A stretch of DNA of 35,982 nucleotides from Acidimicrobiia bacterium (GTDB lineage Bacteria > Actinomycetota > Acidimicrobiia > Acidimicrobiales > JAHEJN01), in assembly GCA_963854565.1 (NCBI GenBank), contig CAWKZT010000001.1, forward strand, positions 1 through 35,982, read 5' to 3'. Of the stretch, positions 3,516 through 24,589 are shown one piece after another. The notes beneath the pieces are model-generated. The model had not been told where the DNA came from and searched no databases. It was given only the letters and a program-made list of their open reading frames with translations. Made by a program: the position numbers and the translations under genes. The first letter of the stretch is position 1, and each line of letters begins with the position of its first letter.

Positions 3516-5078
3516 CTAATTGATGCCCTTCTCGAACTGTTCCCAGTAGGGCTCACGAAGTTTGAATTTCTGCAGCTTCCCAGTTGCCGTGCGGGCTAGT
3601 TCGTCGCGGAACTCAACCGAAGTTGGGCATTTGTAATGCGCCATTTCGTCCCGGCAATATTTTATGAGATCAGCCTCGGTTACATCCGCTGATGGATCGA
3701 CAACGACGAGTGCTTTAACGGTTTCCCCCCACTTCTCATCCGGTACGCCAATGACGGCGACCTCATTGATCGCGGGGTGAGAAAAGAGTCGGTCCTCAAC
3801 CTCAATCGACGACACGTTTTCGCCTCCTGAGATGATGACATCCTTTTTACGGTCCTCAATGTGGACGTAGCTGTCCTCGTCGATGGTGCCGCCATCACCC
3901 GTATGGAACCAGCCATCGCGTAACGCTTTGGCCGATTCTTCAGGCTGGGCCCAGTAGCTCTTAAGGACCACATTGCTTTGCGCACAAATCTCGCCATCGG
4001 GATTTACCCGCATTTTCACACCTATGGCTGGGGCCCCAGCACGACCTAATTTCTTGGCCCGGTCACCAGGAGTGAGGTCGTCCCACTCGGCCCGGCCACG
4101 GCTCATGGTGAGTAGCGGGGCGGTTTCGGTAAGGCCATAAATCTGGATGAATTCCCAACCCAGTTCGGTTTCTACTCGTTCGATGATGATGGTCGGTGGC
4201 GGTGCTCCAGCCACGATGATCCGGACTTTGTCGCGGCCAGGCACCGGACCATCCCATTCGACAGCGGCATCGAGAATTGCGGTGACGATTGCGGGCGCGG
4301 CGCACATGAACGTCACGCCATGTTCTTCGACCCGACGTAAAATTTCAGGGCCATCGACTTTGCGGAGCACAATCTGGGGGACACCAAGACCCGTTGTTGC
4401 ATAGGGCATGCCCCAACCGTTGCAGTGAAACATTGGCAACGTATGCAGGTACACGTCGCGGTCGCTGATCCCGGCGTGCAAGCTGAATACGGTCGCATTT
4501 ATCCACAGATTACGATGCGTCAGCTCGACACCCTTAGGCCGAGCCGTGGTGCCGCTGGTGTAGTTGATCGTGGCGGTGGCGTTCTCGTCGGCATCCCACT
4601 CGGTGGGTTCGACACCATGACGCAGCAGCGCATCAAACTCGGGTCCCATCATGAAGCTGTGGCTCACCGGCAGGCCCTCGGCAAGTTCAGCCATTTCGGG
4701 GTCGTACAAAACCACGTCGGCACCAGAATGTTCGATGATGTATTCGACCTCGGAGCGTGACAAGCGGAAGTTGATAGGCACGGCGACGCGCCCCCAGGCA
4801 CTAGCGCCCATCAGCACGAGCAATAGTCGAGAAGCATTCTGGGAAAGGACCGCGACCCGCCCCCCGAACGGAACACCTAATTCTTCCAGCCCGGCGGCCA
4901 AAGCCTTGGACTGTGTGTAGAACTCGCCATAGGTGAGCGTTGGCACGGGGTCGGCCGGCTGATCGGGCTCGTCAAAGATGGCCGGCCGATCGCCGTAGAC
5001 AATTGCCGCCCGTTCAAGCTGGTCGCGAATTGTCAGTGGTACTTCCATGGGTCCCCCGGATCGGTTAGTGCCTGTCAT
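3516..5078 (-). CDS. acyl-CoA synthetase (AMP-dependent synthetase/ligase)
   Basis: AMP-binding motif YTSGTTARPKG and the GYGLTE-like motif IYGLTET, with a C-terminal TGKLQKFKLR. An alternative start is the ATG at 5048 (MEVPLTIRD), which has GGGGGA upstream. Confidence 0.9.
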   Translation of the reverse strand: MTGTNRSGGPMEVPLTIRDQLERAAIVYGDRPAIFDEPDQPADPVPTLTYGEFYTQSKALAAGLEELGVPFGGRVAVLSQNASRLLLVLMGASAWGRVAVPINFRLSRSEVEYIIEHSGADVVLYDPEMAELAEGLPVSHSFMMGPEFDALLRHGVEPTEWDADENATATINYTSGTTARPKGVELTHRNLWINATVFSLHAGISDRDVYLHTLPMFHCNGWGMPYATTGLGVPQIVLRKVDGPEILRRVEEHGVTFMCAAPAIVTAILDAAVEWDGPVPGRDKVRIIVAGAPPPTIIIERVETELGWEFIQIYGLTETAPLLTMSRGRAEWDDLTPGDRAKKLGRAGAPAIGVKMRVNPDGEICAQSNVVLKSYWAQPEESAKALRDGWFHTGDGGTIDEDSYVHIEDRKKDVIISGGENVSSIEVEDRLFSHPAINEVAVIGVPDEKWGETVKALVVVDPSADVTEADLIKYCRDEMAHYKCPTSVEFRDELARTATGKLQKFKLREPYWEQFEKGIN

Positions 5079-5119: not shown

Positions 5120-6016
5120 TTAAGAAAGACTGCGACCGGTACGAGCTTGTTTTTCTCGACGGGCAACGCCAGCCGCGGCAAGTTCGGCCTGGTTTTCGTC
5201 GGTGACAGGCAGGAATCGGTCACGCCAGCCGTCGTCATCGGCATCCCATACCTGGGGCGACATCACCGTGGTGCGTGGCTCCCAGGCCTGGCCCATAAGG
5301 GTGAGTGCTTGGTCGACGATTTCGGTTTGACCTTTGGTATCGCCGGGTTTGCCCGTGGGATTGCCAAGGGGAAAGTCGACAAACAGGAAACGAGCTACAC
5401 CGCATTCTTCAACGATGTCGCGGGCTGACCCAATGATCACCGTTGGGATTCCCTCGGTTTCAAGGTGACGGGAAACCAGGCTCACGGCCTGGTGACATAC
5501 CGGTCAGAACGGCACCAAGATTGCAATGTCGACATGGTCTTGTGCCATCCATTTAGCGATGGCGGGAGCATCGATCTGTGCCGTATGACGCTGGCTGTAC
5601 ACGGTCGGGGTGCCGTAGAAGCGCGGGGAAATCGAACCTAAGCGCCGGTCGTCGATGGCATCTTGGAGCGCCCGCCAAGGAAGGAACGATTCCGTGTCGT
5701 TGGTATGTGTCTCGTCCTTGGCCCAGGACAGCTTGTCGGCCGCCAGCAGTTCCACTGCTGAAAGTGGTGCTGCGTATGCCTGATCATGATCGGTAACGTA
5801 GGGAACGGTGTCTGGGTCGGGAAAATACCCGGTCGTGACCACGCCAACCCGGCACTCGCTCAAGGGCTTAGTAAGCGATGCGAAAGGCGCGTCAGCAAAG
5901 GCAGCCCATTCGTAAGAGCGGTCGTAGCCTTGTGCCGCGTAGTACTCGCGCGACTTGTCGATGTAGCTTACGAATCCGCGATGGCTGCGTCGGGTGGGGG
6001 TGGGCCCCTGCGTCAT
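5120..6016 (-). CDS. GrdB-family (glycine/sarcosine/betaine reductase component B-like) protein with in-frame TGA at 5504..5506; candidate selenoprotein
   Basis: Track ORFs 5504..6016 and 5120..5485 are in the same frame, with only one TGA between them. The read-through gives ...DIAILVPF-U-PVCHQAVSLVSRHLETEGIPTVIIG...FPLGNPTGKP, matching the U/C-x-x-C redox motif and the following GIPTV segment of the GrdB/PrdB family as I recall it. The N-terminus YIDKSREYYAAQGYDRSYEW is typical of the short non-clostridial GrdB-like family. The start overlaps the upstream ABM stop (ATGA). Confidence 0.65.
5475..5493 (-). promoter_or_regulatory. candidate bacterial SECIS hairpin
   Basis: mRNA reads UGA-CCGGUAUGUC-ACCAGGC-CGUGA-GCCUGGU, a perfect 7-bp stem that starts 10 nt after the UGA. 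The 5-nt apical loop contains GU at +22/+23 counted from the U of UGA. Confidence 0.5.
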
Positions 6017-6318
6017 GAAAGTGGCGTTTCGCCCGTGACTTCGTACATGGTTATGGTCTGGTAGATGGCGCCTAATGTGGCGATTACCGTGAAAAATTCG
6101 TTGATGTGCGGCATTTTCATATGGGGGCCGAGGTTGTCGGCGCTATCCCACATCTCGAATAAGCGGACGAGCCCGTCGTCATGAGTATCACGAGTAAAGA
6201 CGTACTCGAGGCAACCATCCTCGGCCCGGGTGGCATCCATTAATGGGGTGGTTGCCGCCATAAACGCGTCACGCTTTGAGGGATCGAGTTTTATTTTTCC
6301 AGAGATAATGACAGCCAT
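6013..6318 (-). CDS. antibiotic-biosynthesis-monooxygenase (ABM) domain protein / putative quinol monooxygenase
   Basis: About 100 aa, with a ferredoxin-like ABM pattern (CLEYVFTRD...LFEMWDSADNLGPHMKMPH). Its stop overlaps the next gene's start by 4 nt. Confidence 0.8.
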   Translation of the reverse strand: MAVIISGKIKLDPSKRDAFMAATTPLMDATRAEDGCLEYVFTRDTHDDGLVRLFEMWDSADNLGPHMKMPHINEFFTVIATLGAIYQTITMYEVTGETPLS

Positions 6319-6326
6319 AGTGACTC

Positions 6327-7907
6327 CTAATTGACCGCGCGATCGCGGCCTTCCCAGTACGGGGCTCGTAGGTCTTTCTTAAGTACCTTACCGGTGGGGT
6401 TGCGGGGGATCGAATCAACGAAGTCGACCGAGCTGGGGCACTTGAATCGGGCCAACAATGACCGGCAGTGTTCGATGATTTCGGTTGCCTCGGGCGAGGT
6501 GCCGGGCGCACGAACGACTATGGCCTTGGGTGTCTCGCCCCATCTGTCGGACGGCACACCGATGACGGCGCAGTCGGCCACGCCCTCGTGTTTCATGAGG
6601 GCATTCTCGATCTCGGCGGGGTACACATTTTCGCCACCGGAGATAATCATGTCTTTTATGCGGTCGTGCAAGTAGAGGTAACCGTCGTCGAGGTAGCCAG
6701 CGTCACCACTTCGGAACCAGTTTCCCCCCGGGAGAGCTTCTTGTGATGCGTCAGGAAGTTTCCAGTAGCCGACCATATTGGCTGGAGACTTGACCCAAAT
6801 CTCGCCCACTTCGCCGTCGGGTAGGGCCGGTGGATTGGACATATCGATGCCGTCGATGCTGTCGGGGTCGACGATGCGAAGTTCAATACCAGGCATGGCC
6901 TTTCCGGCGGCGCGGAGCAACTTGGCCCGCTTTTCTGGTTCGGCCCGGTGGTCATCGGGCGGCAACATCGTGACTACTCCCGTGGTCTCTGTTAGGCCAT
7001 ACACCTGTATGAAATCGCAATCAAACATTTCCATTGATCCGATGAGTACTTCTTCGGTGATCGGGGAAGCGCCATATGCCATAAGTTTCATGGACGAGAG
7101 ATCAATGCCTTCGAGCGGCATGAGTTGCAAGAACTGCAGTACGGCAGGCACCAGGAAAGCGTGGGTGATCTTGTGGTCATTTATGAACTGCAACAAGGCC
7201 CCAGGGTCCGCTTCACGGAGCAGTACGGTTTCGGCGCCCATCGCCATCCCGAACAATGCCCAACCGCTACCACCGATATGAAAGAGTGGCATCGCGGCCA
7301 TGTTGACACTGTCATATTCGATACCCCATGAGCCAGCAACACGATGCAAAGCGGTCATGGCGTTATGGCTAAGCAGGGCCCCTTTGGGGTTACCTGTCGT
7401 GCCGGAGGTATAGAGCTGGAACGCCACCTCGTCGGGATCGGGCCGCACCACGGGAACATCGCCGGGGGTGGCCTCAAGCCAGGCTTCGTAGGACGGATCA
7501 TCGCCAGACCCGCCAATCACTACGATGCGATTTGTGTGGGCCAGGTCGCCTCGAAAGTCAGCGAGGTGAGGGCCGAATTCGTGGTGGATTGCCACAACTT
7601 TGGCCTGGGCGTCGTTGAGGATATAGGCCATCTCAGGAGCAGCAAGACGCCAGTTGACGGCTACCAAAACCGCACCGAGACGGGCGCACCCAAAAAGTAA
7701 CTCAAAGTACTCAAACCCGTTCTTATCGATGAGGCCGACCCGGTCTCCGGGACCTACACCCGAGGCGGCGAGTGAGGAGGCAACGCTGGCCGCGCGAGCA
7801 TCCAACTCGGTCCAGGTGAGCGAAACGTCATCCAACCGAAGGGCTACCGCGTCGGGTTGGTGTGTTTCGTTTTCTGTGACGATGTCGCCTACTACTTTGA
7901 TTGCCAT
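6327..7907 (-). CDS. acyl-CoA synthetase (long-chain-fatty-acid-CoA ligase-like)
   Basis: Motifs YTSGTTGNPKG, VYGLTETTG, SGDAGYLDDGYLYLHDRIKDMIISGGENVYPAEIE and PRNPTGKVLKKDLR. Confidence 0.9.
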   Translation of the reverse strand: MAIKVVGDIVTENETHQPDAVALRLDDVSLTWTELDARAASVASSLAASGVGPGDRVGLIDKNGFEYFELLFGCARLGAVLVAVNWRLAAPEMAYILNDAQAKVVAIHHEFGPHLADFRGDLAHTNRIVVIGGSGDDPSYEAWLEATPGDVPVVRPDPDEVAFQLYTSGTTGNPKGALLSHNAMTALHRVAGSWGIEYDSVNMAAMPLFHIGGSGWALFGMAMGAETVLLREADPGALLQFINDHKITHAFLVPAVLQFLQLMPLEGIDLSSMKLMAYGASPITEEVLIGSMEMFDCDFIQVYGLTETTGVVTMLPPDDHRAEPEKRAKLLRAAGKAMPGIELRIVDPDSIDGIDMSNPPALPDGEVGEIWVKSPANMVGYWKLPDASQEALPGGNWFRSGDAGYLDDGYLYLHDRIKDMIISGGENVYPAEIENALMKHEGVADCAVIGVPSDRWGETPKAIVVRAPGTSPEATEIIEHCRSLLARFKCPSSVDFVDSIPRNPTGKVLKKDLRAPYWEGRDRAVN

Positions 7908-8541: not shown

Positions 8542-9834
8542 TTAGGTGATCTCGCTGAGGTCGGGGCGGAAGGTGCGCCATGCACCGTCGGGATCGCGTT
8601 GTGTGACGAAGCCCTGATTCTTGTGTCGATTGTGCTTGCCACAAAGTGGCGCCCCGTTGTCGGGGTTCGTTCTACCGCCTTCGCCATAAGGGTGGAGATG
8701 GTCACCCTGGCAGCGACTGCTGACTAAGTAGCACCCAGGCCAGATGCACAATGGGGACTGCAGGTTGATGGCATGGCGAGCCAGACCCGTAAACAGTCGG
8801 GCGTGGGAAAGATCGATCACGGCGCCTTTGGCATCGACAACGACGCGTCGAAAACTGGCGGTAAGTGAATTGATGAATGCCTCGGATGGGTCGAGCAGAA
8901 CGCCGTCGATGGTTTCGCAGCGAAATGTTTTGGGATCAAAGATCGGGCGTTGGTTTGCACCTGCGGCAACAAGCATGGCCTCGTAGGTGTCTGACGACCA
9001 GACGATGTTGTGGACGAAGCCGACGGTAGAGGTGCCGGTGAGATTGTTCGCGGCAAGGGCGAAAATGTGGTCGACCGCATCGGCACGACGTTGGGAATTG
9101 GTGCGGGCAAGGTGTTCTTTGCGAGTGTCAATCCCATGAATCATCTGCGCGGAATCCCAGTCGGCCTTGAACTCGATGTCGATGAACCGGTCGAATATCT
9201 CGTTGATGGCCGCACCTTGCAAGGCACTAAAAGAACCGTCGAGATCCCAGGACAGGTCGAATGCGTTCTGGGTCAGATTGGCCCGGCGGTTGTTGTGATT
9301 GCGTTCGGCGTCTTGGTCGGCGCCGTCTTGGTCGACTAGGCGCTCCCACGTGGTGATGGCATTCTCAAAGTCGAGAAACGAAGCACCTTTGGCAATCTGG
9401 GCAAATGCAGCGTCGCGTTCGGTGAGCAGGTAGCGGATACGTCTATTGGCGTGAACCTTGCCGAGAAGAGCGACTTGATCCATGCCGATTTGGCCAGCCT
9501 CAAAGGCAGCAGCGATTTGAGGCATCGCGTCGAGCACTTGGCGGCACCGATCACGACGCAAAGAAGTGGCCGCCGACAGCTTGGCATTGTGGCGCATCAT
9601 CACTTTGGCCGAATGGTGCCCATCGGAGAAGTGGAGCCGTTGGTTGTCAATTGAACGCAATAATTCGATGCCAGCGGCACTTAGGCGACGCTGCTGTTTC
9701 TCGAGAGTGCGGATCCAGGCCACCGCGTCGCGGGCGCTAGCGGGAGCGATGCCGCGGGCAAAAAGCTGGTCGATGCCTGTTGAGATGAGGTCAAGTGCCT
9801 CATTGGCCTGGGAATTTTGTACCGCCATTTCCAT
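8542..9834 (-). CDS. DUF222 / HNH endonuclease domain protein (REP13E12-like family)
   Basis: The N-terminal region is DUF222-like. The C-terminal HNH motif is CIWPGCYLVSSRCQGDHLHPYGEGGRTNPDNGAPLCGKHNRHKN. Confidence 0.85.
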   Translation of the reverse strand: MEMAVQNSQANEALDLISTGIDQLFARGIAPASARDAVAWIRTLEKQQRRLSAAGIELLRSIDNQRLHFSDGHHSAKVMMRHNAKLSAATSLRRDRCRQVLDAMPQIAAAFEAGQIGMDQVALLGKVHANRRIRYLLTERDAAFAQIAKGASFLDFENAITTWERLVDQDGADQDAERNHNNRRANLTQNAFDLSWDLDGSFSALQGAAINEIFDRFIDIEFKADWDSAQMIHGIDTRKEHLARTNSQRRADAVDHIFALAANNLTGTSTVGFVHNIVWSSDTYEAMLVAAGANQRPIFDPKTFRCETIDGVLLDPSEAFINSLTASFRRVVVDAKGAVIDLSHARLFTGLARHAINLQSPLCIWPGCYLVSSRCQGDHLHPYGEGGRTNPDNGAPLCGKHNRHKNQGFVTQRDPDGAWRTFRPDLSEIT

Positions 9835-15124: not shown

Positions 15125-15204
15125 ACCCTAGGACCAATGGGTGTCAGCAGTTGCGAAATCTCCGGGATTGGAATGCCGATCACAAGCGGTGGGTTCCCGA
15201 TGCA

Positions 15205-15396
15205 ATGTCCATCGAGTCGGTAAACGCCGCTTCGGACTTCATGAAAAGTCACTTTCAGGCGATCGTCATGTTGTCGGCCGGCACGCTTGCCATTTTTGGC
15301 GTCTTGCTAATGGCGAACCGTCTTACCTGGGTCACCACCCAACTGCAATCGATCATGAGATCGGTGGGCCTGGAATGGCTCGTCGGTCTGGGTTAA
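15205..15396 (+). pseudogene. possible remnant of the last transmembrane segment of CcdA (cytochrome c biogenesis thiol transporter) or a small membrane protein
   Basis: MKSHFQAIVMLSAGTLAIFGVLLMANRLTWVTTQLQS resembles the CcdA C-terminus as I recall it. No room exists for the rest of the gene because the helicase start lies at 15124. Confidence 0.35.
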
Positions 15397-15411
15397 TCAA
15401 GGAGAATTTAG

Positions 15412-15954
15412 ATGTCGAACAAGAACAACAGGCGTAAGCGCCCACCAGCACCAGGCCCAAAGGCAACTGGTGCGACGGAGGCCGTGGCCAAGACGGGCAA
15501 GGGTTTCACGCCCAAGAAAGGCAGCAGCACGCCACGCACCAAAGTGCCGGCCCGGCCGGTTAAACAACGCAGCACTGGTGCTATCGAATGGGTGGTGCTC
15601 GTTGGTGTGATCGTGGTCATTATTGGCGCGGTGTTCTATTTCACCGCCTTTTCTGACGAGTCCGAAGAGGGCATCACCGCGGCTAACAACTGGGACCTCC
15701 CTGCGCTCGAAGGCACTGATGACGACGGGCGCCTCACGTTGTCGGAGTTCGAAGGCAAGCCGACCATTGTGAAAGATATCGGAGGCCCACAAGGCAACGG
15801 TCTTTACCGTGCTGTGGGCGGCCCGGGCGGCATGCCGATCACCGCGTTTTATGACGCCAATGGTGAGTTGGTGTTCATGAATCCCGGTGGGATGACCTTC
15901 GCTACCGTTGAGGACCGACTCACCCAACTTGGCCTTTTAGATACGGCGCAGTAG
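15412..15954 (+). CDS. membrane-anchored TlpA/ResA-like (thioredoxin-fold) protein lacking the CxxC region
   Basis: AAGGAGA RBS, basic N-terminus and one TM segment. SEFEGKPTIV and AVGGPGGMPITAFYDANGELV match the redoxin flanks, but the segment between them is missing and the protein has no cysteine. Confidence 0.6.
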   Translation: MSNKNNRRKRPPAPGPKATGATEAVAKTGKGFTPKKGSSTPRTKVPARPVKQRSTGAIEWVVLVGVIVVIIGAVFYFTAFSDESEEGITAANNWDLPALEGTDDDGRLTLSEFEGKPTIVKDIGGPQGNGLYRAVGGPGGMPITAFYDANGELVFMNPGGMTFATVEDRLTQLGLLDTAQ

Positions 15955-22299: not shown

Positions 22300-22525
22300 A
22301 GCTGATCCTTCGGAGTTCGGGACGAGTCGTTGAATGTTTCTAAATTGTAGGGGCTTGTGCAGCGTCGGCAATATCGAGTTGGGCGGTGGCGGTCTGAAGC
22401 ACCTGGGCTATTGGGGTGCGACTCCTCCCGTGGATACGGACCCGCATCTTGTTACAAACACTCTTCGTGTCAATTGACCGGGTACTTGGCAAAACCGTAG
22501 CCCGTGAATGTGGCACGCTGGGCGC

Positions 22526-24589
22526 ATGGACGTGCATTTGGTCGATGGGACCTACGAGCTATTTCGGTATCACTACAACCCTGCAAACAAAGATGATCGT
22601 CATGGTGCGACCAAAGGGGTGCTTTCGAGCATGCTCGACTTGGTGCGCGGAGGGGCGACACATGTTGGTATTGCGACCGATCATGTCATTACGTCTTTCC
22701 GCAACGACATGTACGACGATTACAAAGATGGCTCGGACATCGATCCGCAACTGCATGCGCAGTTCCCCGAGATTGAAGATGCACTGCGGGCGGCTGGCTT
22801 CACCGTCTTCCCAATGGTGGAGTATGAAGCCGACGACGGGATGGCTGCTGCTGCGGTGGCAGCCGAGAAAGATCCCGCGGTCGACAAAGTCATCATCTGC
22901 ACCCCGGACAAAGATTTGGGCCAGTGTGTTCGAGCCGACGGGCGCATTGTGCAGTACGACCGACGCAAGCAACTGATGATCGATCAAGCGGGCATTATTG
23001 AGAAATTCGGGGTACCTCCCGAGTCAATCCCGGACTACCTCGGGCTCGTTGGCGATACCGCCGATGGTTTTCCCGGATTACCGGGCTGGGGGGCCAAATC
23101 AACGGCAACGCTGTTAGCCAAGTATGGGCACATTCAGAACATCCCGCCGTCGTCCGATGACTGGCAGGTAAAGGTCCGCGGCGCCGTGAAGTTGGCCGTG
23201 ACTTTGCGCGAGAACTACGACGACGCATTGCTGTTCCGTAAGATCGCCACGGTCATCACCGACATCGACCTCTTCGGGTCCGTCGATGAGATGCGCTGGG
23301 ATGGTCCGACCCCAGCATTTGAACAGATTGCACGCGACCTCGGGCAGGTGGGGCTGTGGAAGCGAGCCGTCGAGTTGCATAAGAATCGTCGAGTCACAAA
23401 AGAGCCGATGACTGTTTCGCTTCGGCCCGTATCGCCCGCCGATCTCGGAGCGCTTTTGCCCATGAATAACGCGGCAGTTCCGGCCGTGAGCCATCTGGAA
23501 ATGCCCGCACTTGAGGCGTTGGTTGACCAGGCCGAATGGTTTACAGTCGTTGAGTCTGAAGGCGAGATAGCGGGTTTCTTGATTGGTATGCATGGTCCGG
23601 GTTTGCCCTACGCCAGTGTCAATTACCGTGAGTTCTGTCGGCGATTTCCTGACGGATTTTGGTACGTCGACCGCATTGTGGTTTCGCCGGACCACCGCAA
23701 CAAGCAGATCGGCGCCACGCTGTACGACGCGTTTGCGAAGTTTGGTCGAGCCAGTTTGGATGGGTCCGCGATAGGTGGTCCGCGTGTCTGCGCCGAGGTA
23801 AATGTTCGTCCGCGCAACGATGGTTCGCTGCGGTTCCACCGCCGTTTCGGGTTCCGCCCCATTGGTGAGTTGGACTATTCCGACGACGGCCAGCGGGTGA
23901 GTCTGTTGGCCTATGACCTCACCGATGGTGCCGCTCCGCTTGATCGGCATCACGTTGTTGACGTGACCGCCAAGCACGATCCCGACCTGGCGCAACGGTT
24001 AGAGTTTGTCTTCGATCTGGATCGTTTGAAGACGGTGCAACGCATGTCGCTCATTACCGATGGCAGTCGCCGCGAAAACACCGCCGAGCATTCGTGGCAT
24101 ATTGCCATGGTGGCTATTGCGTGTGCGCCCACTGCCGCTGAACCAATCAGTATTGATCGGGTGATCGAGATGCTGCTGGTACACGACATTGTTGAGGCTG
24201 ACGCGGGTGATGTCTATATCTACGATGAGCTCACCAGCGATGTCGCGGCAGCAAGTAAGTCTCGGCTCGAAACCGAAGCGGCGAGGCGGATCTTTGGTCT
24301 GTTACCCAATGGCGAGGGTGACCGACTCCGTGAACTTTGGGAAGAGTACGAAGGTCAGACCAGCGCCGATGCACGGTTTGCCAAGGCTTGTGACCGAATT
24401 CAGCCGTTCTTGTTGAATGCTGCCAACGGTGGAAAATCGTGGACAGAGAACAACATCACCGCTTCGCAGGTGCGTCACGCGATGAGCGAGGTCAAGGTCG
24501 GTGCACCAAGATTGGTCGAGATGGTCGAAAGACTCATAGCCGAGCAAGTAGCCATCGGCCACTTACCCGAAGGATCGCCCCCGACGTAA
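22526..24589 (+). CDS. three-domain fusion protein: 5'-3' exonuclease/FEN (PIN-like) + GNAT acetyltransferase + HD-domain phosphohydrolase
   Basis: N-terminal domain has VEYEADDGMAAAA, TPDKDLGQC and GLVGDTADGFPGLPGWGAKSTATLL (H3TH). The middle domain is GNAT, with motif A VDRIVVSPDHRNKQIGATLYDAF and LRFHRRFGF. The C-terminal domain has RRENTAEHSWHIAMVA and LVHDIVEADAGD, an HD of the YfbR-like type. It is one uninterrupted ORF. Confidence 0.8.
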   Translation: MDVHLVDGTYELFRYHYNPANKDDRHGATKGVLSSMLDLVRGGATHVGIATDHVITSFRNDMYDDYKDGSDIDPQLHAQFPEIEDALRAAGFTVFPMVEYEADDGMAAAAVAAEKDPAVDKVIICTPDKDLGQCVRADGRIVQYDRRKQLMIDQAGIIEKFGVPPESIPDYLGLVGDTADGFPGLPGWGAKSTATLLAKYGHIQNIPPSSDDWQVKVRGAVKLAVTLRENYDDALLFRKIATVITDIDLFGSVDEMRWDGPTPAFEQIARDLGQVGLWKRAVELHKNRRVTKEPMTVSLRPVSPADLGALLPMNNAAVPAVSHLEMPALEALVDQAEWFTVVESEGEIAGFLIGMHGPGLPYASVNYREFCRRFPDGFWYVDRIVVSPDHRNKQIGATLYDAFAKFGRASLDGSAIGGPRVCAEVNVRPRNDGSLRFHRRFGFRPIGELDYSDDGQRVSLLAYDLTDGAAPLDRHHVVDVTAKHDPDLAQRLEFVFDLDRLKTVQRMSLITDGSRRENTAEHSWHIAMVAIACAPTAAEPISIDRVIEMLLVHDIVEADAGDVYIYDELTSDVAAASKSRLETEAARRIFGLLPNGEGDRLRELWEEYEGQTSADARFAKACDRIQPFLLNAANGGKSWTENNITASQVRHAMSEVKVGAPRLVEMVERLIAEQVAIGHLPEGSPPT

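Follow-up and report, generated by a model that had tools for sequence, protein, structure and literature searches.

A TGA-interrupted PrdB-like gene in an Acidimicrobiia genome fragment probably encodes a selenoprotein with a SECIS-type hairpin in its coding sequence

We analysed a 36-kb stretch of DNA from an Acidimicrobiia bacterium (contig CAWKZT010000001.1; the whole stretch is called the window below), in which two small adjacent open reading frames (ORFs) on the minus strand look like the two halves of a single PrdB-like selenoprotein gene. The first ORF has 170 codons (6016..5507); it starts with an ATG at 6016, ends with ...D-I-A-I-L-V-P-F and is followed by a TGA at 5506..5504. The second, called as 121 residues, runs in the same frame from a GTG at 5485 to a TAA at 5122..5120, and the six in-frame codons after the TGA, CCG GTA TGT CAC CAG GCC, are open and would be translated as P V C H Q A. 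A reading of this DNA made from its letters alone (the sequence-only reading) had proposed that the TGA splits one frame and that read-through would give a product of 298 residues, and translation of the minus strand bore this out. With U standing for selenocysteine (Sec), the junction of the product reads ...ILVPF-U-PVCHQAVSLVSR. The complete read-through coding sequence occupies 5120..6016 on the minus strand. Its UGA (5504..5506) would be read as selenocysteine at residue 171, the first position of the motif U-P-V-C-H-Q, and the TGT at 5495..5497 encodes Cys174, which presumably acts as the resolving cysteine of UxxC. On every contig that carries it, in ENA, JGI and Logan as well as in the NCBI metagenome-assembled genome (MAG) GCA_054189725.1, the gene is broken up by public gene callers into 170 residues and 121 or 126 residues. 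We nevertheless give a probability of roughly 90% to the two adjacent ORFs being one gene for a 298-residue selenoprotein. The evidence lies in the alignment of the TGA with a conserved cysteine, in the conservation of the TGA itself and in its place in the PrdB family model. When the window was scanned for other cases of TGA read-through, no second convincing candidate was seen.

To place the protein in a family, the read-through product was searched with C written for U, and 1389 relatives were found in the databases. The best family match was NCBIfam TIGR04483, D-proline reductase PrdB, with E = 8e-22 and a score of 77.8 bits, the cut-off of the model being 300. When the halves were scanned against this model separately, the N-terminal ORF matched model positions 19-144 and the downstream part positions 150-223. 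Since these segments are consecutive, the TGA falls within a single domain, near model position 148, and not at a domain or gene boundary, which would have counted against the proposal. The position is consistent with Sec151 of the PrdB of Clostridioides difficile, with an inferred offset of three residues rather than one taken from a residue-by-residue alignment. In the alignment with 117 full-length Cys homologues of about 295 residues, the TGA fell on the first Cys of an invariant C-P-V-C-H-Q, so that U takes the place of the first Cys of the CxxC motif as had been predicted. The column of Cys174 is invariant in 118 sequences, and this residue was also kept in all 82 genome loci and 128 unique Sec-form sequences that are described below.

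A structure model was made with AlphaFold2 for the Cys homologue P0006, which is 50% identical to the window protein. In this model (pLDDT 91.5) the CxxC motif opens a helix at residues 168-183, and a strand with the sequence G-I-P-T-V follows at 188-192; both elements had been expected after the motif. The PDB was searched by sequence, once with the protein and once with a profile built from 117 sequences, and no match with E up to 10 came up. A Foldseek search with the confident P0006 model gave no match at E ≤ 0.001 either, and only a generic Rossmann-like or periplasmic-binding-protein-like resemblance was seen. The score of 77.8 bits lies below the equivalog cut-off for PrdB, and the models for GrdB, GrdF and GrdH stayed at 28-32 bits compared with cut-offs of 602-800 (TIGR01917, 27.6 bits against 602; NF040794 and NF040795, about 32 bits against 775-800). 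The Pfam family GRDB (PF07355) gave 16.5 bits with a cut-off of 22 (E = 0.0055). Judged from its sequence, the protein is a member of the GrdB/PrdB superfamily on an orphan PrdB-like branch, and the earlier assignment to this superfamily, with a UxxC redox motif, is supported by the TIGR04483 match and by the position of U at the first Cys of CPVCHQ.

We then looked at how far the TGA is conserved. A tblastn scan of one genome per species was used to collect the 80 best loci with matches spanning both halves of the protein (L008-L087), which together with the window and the locus L001 make 82 non-redundant genome-derived loci. The 80 best loci were 52-61% identical to the window protein. L001 is syntenic with the window, its N-terminal ORF (P0004) is 79% identical, and it has the same TGA and the same open frame. 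All 82 genome loci (80/80 for the best loci taken by themselves) had the TGA at the homologous codon and an open frame to either side of it, well beyond what chance would give. Most of the 80 loci came from Acidimicrobiia, and some from Reyranella, SAR324, Gammaproteobacteria and Dehalococcoidia MAGs; several were on closed Candidatus Poriferisodalis chromosomes. A scan of metagenomes seeded with Cys forms also returned mainly TGA, which was found in 64 of the 66 scorable loci, while one locus had a Cys codon and one had CGA. The claim that the TGA is a Sec codon with conserved family sequence on both sides is thus well supported by both the genome and the metagenome loci.

It follows from these counts that the Sec form predominates in the family at the DNA level, and the general expectation that non-clostridial homologues usually carry Cys at this position does not apply here. 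In the protein database the family is represented mainly by full-length Cys forms, because gene callers break every Sec form into two short ORFs. Two side observations were made on the same set of loci. The locus with CGA (Arg) at the Sec codon, L167:2529-3380 on the metagenome contig Ga0209598_10001773, has the hairpin sequence CACCAGACCGTGAGTCTGG fully intact, and the CGA may have arisen by an error in sequencing or by a very recent mutation, or it may mark an inactive allele. Also, the gene copies in the MAGs labelled "Rhizobium sp. Q54" and "Asaia bogorensis" (L032 and L045) were closest to the Reyranella copies, so these bin labels may be unreliable.

One alternative is that the TGA is a genuine stop, in a pseudogene or through a mistake in assembly or sequencing, and that the 170-residue fragment at most is made. 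Gene callers do take the TGA as a stop, and neither the window nor 1.49 Mb of related loci yielded any Sec machinery. On the other hand, the same TGA is present in independent assemblies from ENA, JGI, NCBI and Logan as well as in nearly all of the genome and metagenome loci, and the downstream half has no other in-frame stop and a low ratio of non-synonymous to synonymous change (pN/pS 0.104). We rejected a pseudogene or a sequencing error because of the conservation of the TGA and the purifying selection downstream of it, and regard a genuine stop as having a negligible chance of being correct. A reassignment of UGA in the whole genome was rejected too. An ordinary TGA stop ends 60 of the 82 family genes, which indicates that UGA is not reassigned genome-wide, and the ABM-domain gene directly upstream in the window also stops at TGA.

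Translation across the junction was examined by comparing the window with L001. The pN/pS was 0.155 in the N-terminal half, upstream of the TGA, and the downstream C-terminal half had the value given above, which is indicative of purifying selection on both halves. In the six codons that separate the TGA from the GTG, three synonymous changes and no non-synonymous change were seen. This comparison bears on the possibility of a true split gene, in which the 170-residue chain and a chain of about 121 residues are translated separately and form a two-chain enzyme without the first redox residue. Cleavage of the proproteins PrdA and GrdE does yield two-chain enzymes in this superfamily, and a GTG is found seven codons past the TGA in 58 of the 82 loci, the window included. 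However, there was no Shine-Dalgarno-like motif before this GTG in any of the 82 loci, in agreement with the earlier remark that the downstream ORF would begin with a GTG without a ribosome-binding site. In seven loci the site is occupied by ATC or another non-start codon, and the first in-frame start lies at least 22 codons after the TGA. The six intervening codons, with their invariant Cys-His-Gln, are conserved with synonymous change only, although they would be untranslated if the gene were split, and the GTG itself forms part of the loop of the hairpin described next. A genuine split gene was rejected for want of a conserved start or Shine-Dalgarno motif and because of the conserved intervening codons, and we consider it extremely unlikely.

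Shortly after the TGA the coding sequence contains a hairpin of the selenocysteine insertion sequence (SECIS) type, at 5475..5493 on the minus strand. The arms ACCAGGC (5493..5487) and GCCUGGU (5481..5475) form a stem of 7 bp around the 5-nt loop CGUGA (5486..5482), which has G-U at loop positions 2-3. The hairpin begins 10 nt past the UGA, its 17-nt core closed by a C-G pair begins 11 nt past the UGA, and the calculated folding energy is -11.8 kcal/mol (z = -2.3). The published criteria for bacterial SECIS (bSECIS) elements (PMC13188914) are a loop of 3-9 nt with a G in its first two positions, a stem of 4-16 bp, a distance from the UGA to the loop of 16-37 nt and an energy of -7.5 kcal/mol or lower. 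With a UGA-to-loop distance of 17 nt and the energy given above, the hairpin falls within all four. A selenocysteine codon at this place implied a bacterial SECIS element close to the TGA, and the conserved 7-bp/CGUGA hairpin is a good candidate for it.

The conservation of the hairpin was measured on a specified structure of 13 pairs, which consists of the 7-bp hairpin and a lower stem of 6 bp and was scored over 77 distinct sequences. In this structure 85% of the cells were paired, compared with 24-41% when the 3' partner was slid by 1-3 columns. Compensatory changes were found at three of the pairs. At one of them G-C is replaced by A-U through the substitution of CAA/TTG for CAG/CTG, a change that is silent in both codons; at the second, C-G is replaced by U-A; the third, usually A-U, is U-A in a few sequences, and the window and L001 have G-C there. 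The share of the majority codon was 0.80-0.97 at codons +4 to +9, compared with 0.35-0.65 in most flanking codons, and by this measure the choice of synonymous codons is frozen exactly over the hairpin. An example is Ser +8, where the otherwise rare codon AGT, which pairs with the A of ACC, was used in 88% of those Sec forms whose residue here is Ser and in one of six Cys forms. The inner 6 bp were all paired in 80% of 128 Sec forms compared with none of the six Cys forms.

Several observations weigh against our interpretation and have to be considered together. The conserved His-Gln...Leu-Val codons impose the outer CCAG/CUGG pairs of the hairpin, which are also retained in Cys forms, so that the evidence at the RNA level comes from the freezing of codons and from compensatory changes that are modest in number. 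The Cys forms that serve as a control for the hairpin are few, six sequences only, and in one clade of about 19 sequences the stem has a U.C or U.U mismatch. A search of the whole window against Rfam at the gathering threshold gave no match, and a permissive scan of 5380..5580 returned only a chance miRNA match with E = 4. Bacterial SECIS elements located within ORFs are poorly modelled in Rfam, so the absence of a match is to be expected. ARAGORN found no tRNA genes in the window, and consequently no tRNA-Sec, nor did it find a tRNA-Sec in 60 related loci. Using tblastn with the SelA, SelB and SelD proteins of Escherichia coli, we obtained no match to selA, selB or selD in the window or in the related loci (1.49 Mb in total). 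As sel genes normally sit elsewhere in the genome, this negative result is uninformative. Lastly, the catalytic mechanism and the redox partner of the protein are drawn by analogy with PrdB and GrdB only. As a separate observation, the Cys forms L090:6001-6894 and L091-L094 retain part of the hairpin (CCAG/CUGG), and in L090 the ACC...AGT pair is present as well, as if a SECIS element had survived as a fossil of a recent switch from Sec to Cys.

All four genes selA, selB, selC and selD have been reported in all 84 complete genomes of Actinomarinales, an order of Acidimicrobiia (2026 preprint). The report is indirect support for the presence of the Sec machinery, which makes it plausible for the lineage. 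With the Sec machinery of the source genome itself no more than plausible, one might think that the UGA is read through without selenocysteine, by a near-cognate tRNA for Trp or Cys or by a lineage-specific suppressor, with the hairpin doing nothing more than stimulating the read-through. Structure-stimulated read-through of stop codons does exist in other systems. Here, however, the UGA replaces the redox Cys of a UxxC motif at a position where the characterised PrdB and GrdB proteins have Sec when they are aligned, and a family distributed over several phyla is more easily reconciled with the universal Sec system than with a special suppressor. The hairpin also conforms to the criteria for SelB-type bSECIS elements, and in earlier marine surveys the family was scored as a selenoprotein family with bSECISearch (PMC1088965, PMC2398784). 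Read-through of this kind seems very unlikely to us, and we keep to the insertion of selenocysteine.

If selenocysteine is inserted, the hairpin at 5493..5475 would recruit SelB with Sec-tRNA(Sec) as the ribosome reaches the UGA at 5506..5504, selenocysteine would be incorporated there, and the ribosome would go on to the TAA at 5122..5120. Taking PrdB and GrdB as the analogy, we would expect Sec171 to serve as the nucleophile or redox centre of the enzyme. Cys174 might then resolve it into a selenenyl-sulfide that a thiol system such as thioredoxin would reduce again. The most likely activity, on the same analogy, is a redox reaction of the Sec171/Cys174 pair on a small molecule.

The gene appears to belong to an operon on the minus strand. 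The first gene of this operon (6327..7907) encodes an AMP-binding protein of the acyl-CoA-synthetase type with 526 residues (PF00501, PF13193), and it is followed by a gene for a 101-residue ABM-domain protein (6013..6318; PF03992, E = 1.7e-13). The TGA stop of the ABM gene overlaps the ATG of the selenoprotein gene (ATGA), from which it seems that the two are probably co-translated within one operon. A second AMP-binding gene (3516..5078; 520 residues, PF00501, PF13193) lies 41 nt downstream of the selenoprotein gene on the same strand. The same arrangement was found in L001, where all of these genes are syntenic and the order ligase, ABM, selenoprotein, ligase is identical. An AMP-binding gene is also located 3' of the selenoprotein gene in L008 and L013. 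The commonest neighbour among the 82 loci was an alpha/beta-hydrolase gene, which lies directly 3' on the same strand in 35 of them (for example L053:10896-11771; PF00561, PF12697) and is absent from the clade of the window. Genes for acyl-CoA dehydrogenase, MaoC dehydratase, enoyl-CoA hydratase, CoA-transferase, amidase-like proteins and globins recur next to the gene in particular sub-clades. When neighbours were clustered by a greedy non-overlap procedure, no universal partner gene was found across the 82 loci.

Three further features of the window were noted. A gene for a DUF222 protein of 430 residues (8542..9834, minus strand) lies just upstream of the operon, past a divergent NUDIX gene, and both are kept in L001; DUF222 genes are usually fused to HNH endonucleases in Actinomycetota. 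At 22508..24589 on the plus strand, an ORF of 693 residues is an unusual three-part fusion of a 5'-3' exonuclease (N and C domains), a GNAT acetyltransferase and an HD domain (YfbR-like 5'-deoxynucleotidase). At 15141..15954 on the plus strand the window has two unannotated ORFs of 98 and 180 residues, where an otherwise collinear JGI contig (sample 3300072015) has one gene of the thioredoxin/AhpC-like type and one for a DsbD-type membrane protein, which indicates a strain-level replacement of genes.

The protein could be a genuine D-proline reductase PrdB, or a B subunit of glycine, sarcosine or betaine reductase, with its pyruvoyl partner encoded elsewhere. PrdB is the best family match, homologues are entered in some sources as "D-proline reductase (dithiol) PrdB" or "glycine reductase", and the surveys use the name PrdB. 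The scores, however, stay far below the cut-offs for PrdB and for GrdB, GrdF and GrdH. No members of the PrdA, GrdE, GrdA or PrdC families were seen among the Pfam-annotated genes of the window or among the recurrent neighbours of the 82 loci. The same was true of prdH and of grdC/grdD in the window and the recurrent neighbours, distant genomic sites being outside the search. In C. difficile, in comparison, prdA and prdB share one gene cluster, and the hosts of the family, as inferred from the titles of the records, are mostly aerobic marine or soil lineages rather than Stickland fermenters. We judge it unlikely that the protein is such a reductase. A role in the reduction of D-proline or glycine is improbable because there is no PrdA or GrdE pyruvoyl partner and no GrdA nearby, and the protein is probably not one of these enzymes.

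We lean slightly towards the idea that the PrdB-like family is a distinct class of selenoenzymes that works without a pyruvoyl partner on a substrate of its own and is neither a proline nor a glycine reductase. The family may be linked to acyl-CoA or lipid-type metabolism, as is suggested by the ABM gene and acyl-CoA ligases here and, in other loci, by genes for an alpha/beta-hydrolase, an acyl-CoA dehydrogenase and an enoyl-CoA hydratase. In the literature we found nothing on the function of PrdB-like proteins in Acidimicrobiia or in aerobes, or on the missing PrdA partner. If the family is indeed a distinct class, its function, once solved, would uncover a major way in which aerobic marine Acidimicrobiia use selenium, since these selenoproteins rank among the most abundant in the ocean and the Sec form predominates.

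As a selenoprotein family, these proteins are not new. The sequence-only reading had described selenoproteins of this kind as poorly known, which has to be corrected in one respect, as the family was already catalogued as a selenoprotein family in 2005 and 2008. In the survey of the Sargasso Sea (Zhang, Fomenko and Gladyshev 2005, PMC1088965), 42 UxxC selenoproteins named "proline reductase PrdB" were found, which made this the third most abundant family, and 14 sequences in the supplement have u-PVCHQ. One of them, AACY01093821, reads ...LLVPLuPVCHQTVGLVARHLESNGIPTVIAGSARDIIEQCGVPRFLFTDFPLGNPTG... from the junction onwards; its alignment with the window protein covered 177 residues at 55% identity (E = 9e-70). 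The Global Ocean Sampling survey (Zhang and Gladyshev 2008, PMC2398784) counted 235 Sec and 110 Cys members, seventh by count. Neither survey gave a genome context, a host assignment or a function for the PrdB-like family, and recent reviews still give it only as "D-proline reductase, TIGR04483, UxxC". An abundant marine selenoprotein family thus carries the name "PrdB" on loan, by homology only. On all of the public contigs examined, the gene is wrongly annotated as a pair of hypothetical ORFs, and the Sec form is therefore under-represented in protein databases. The window adds a clean genomic context and a well-defined SECIS element, which should make the family easier both to annotate and to study by experiment, and leaves the known principle unchanged.

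The window protein is a new and somewhat divergent member of this known family. With the marine "proline reductase PrdB" proteins it shares the U-P-V-C-H-Q motif and its flanks, the UxxC arrangement and the predominance of Sec forms over Cys forms. The window and L001 differ from them in forming a sub-branch that has diverged, with 52-61% identity to the remaining members from genomes, and in having Phe for Leu before U and Ala for Thr/Ser at +6 together with the matching G-C pair in the hairpin. Their context is also their own, namely the ABM gene with two AMP-binding genes.

The PrdB of C. difficile has its Sec at residue 151, is encoded in one cluster with PrdA and needs the pyruvoyl group of PrdA for its mechanism (PMC11229817). 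The window protein is homologous to clostridial PrdB over about 200 residues (model positions 19-221), and both have the UxxC motif, a Sec encoded by UGA and a SECIS element within the ORF. It differs in having extensions of about 43 residues at the N-terminus and about 54 residues at the C-terminus, in its score of 77.8 bits compared with 300, in the lack of prdA, prdC and prdH as neighbours and in hosts that are not Stickland fermenters. The likeness to GrdB, GrdF and GrdH (PF07355; TIGR01917/01918, NF040794/5) is a weak homology to their C-terminal, Sec-bearing part, at about positions 280-420 of models of 430-435 residues (E = 1e-6 to 7e-8). Compared with these proteins, the window protein is about 140 residues shorter, scores below all of the cut-offs and has no grdA, grdE, grdC or grdD nearby. 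The hairpin, finally, can be compared with the consensus bSECIS element typified by fdhF of E. coli. It has no similarity to the fdhF element in primary sequence, and the bulged U is not evident in it, whereas the two are alike in being a stem-loop within the ORF just past the UGA, with all of the published limits observed.

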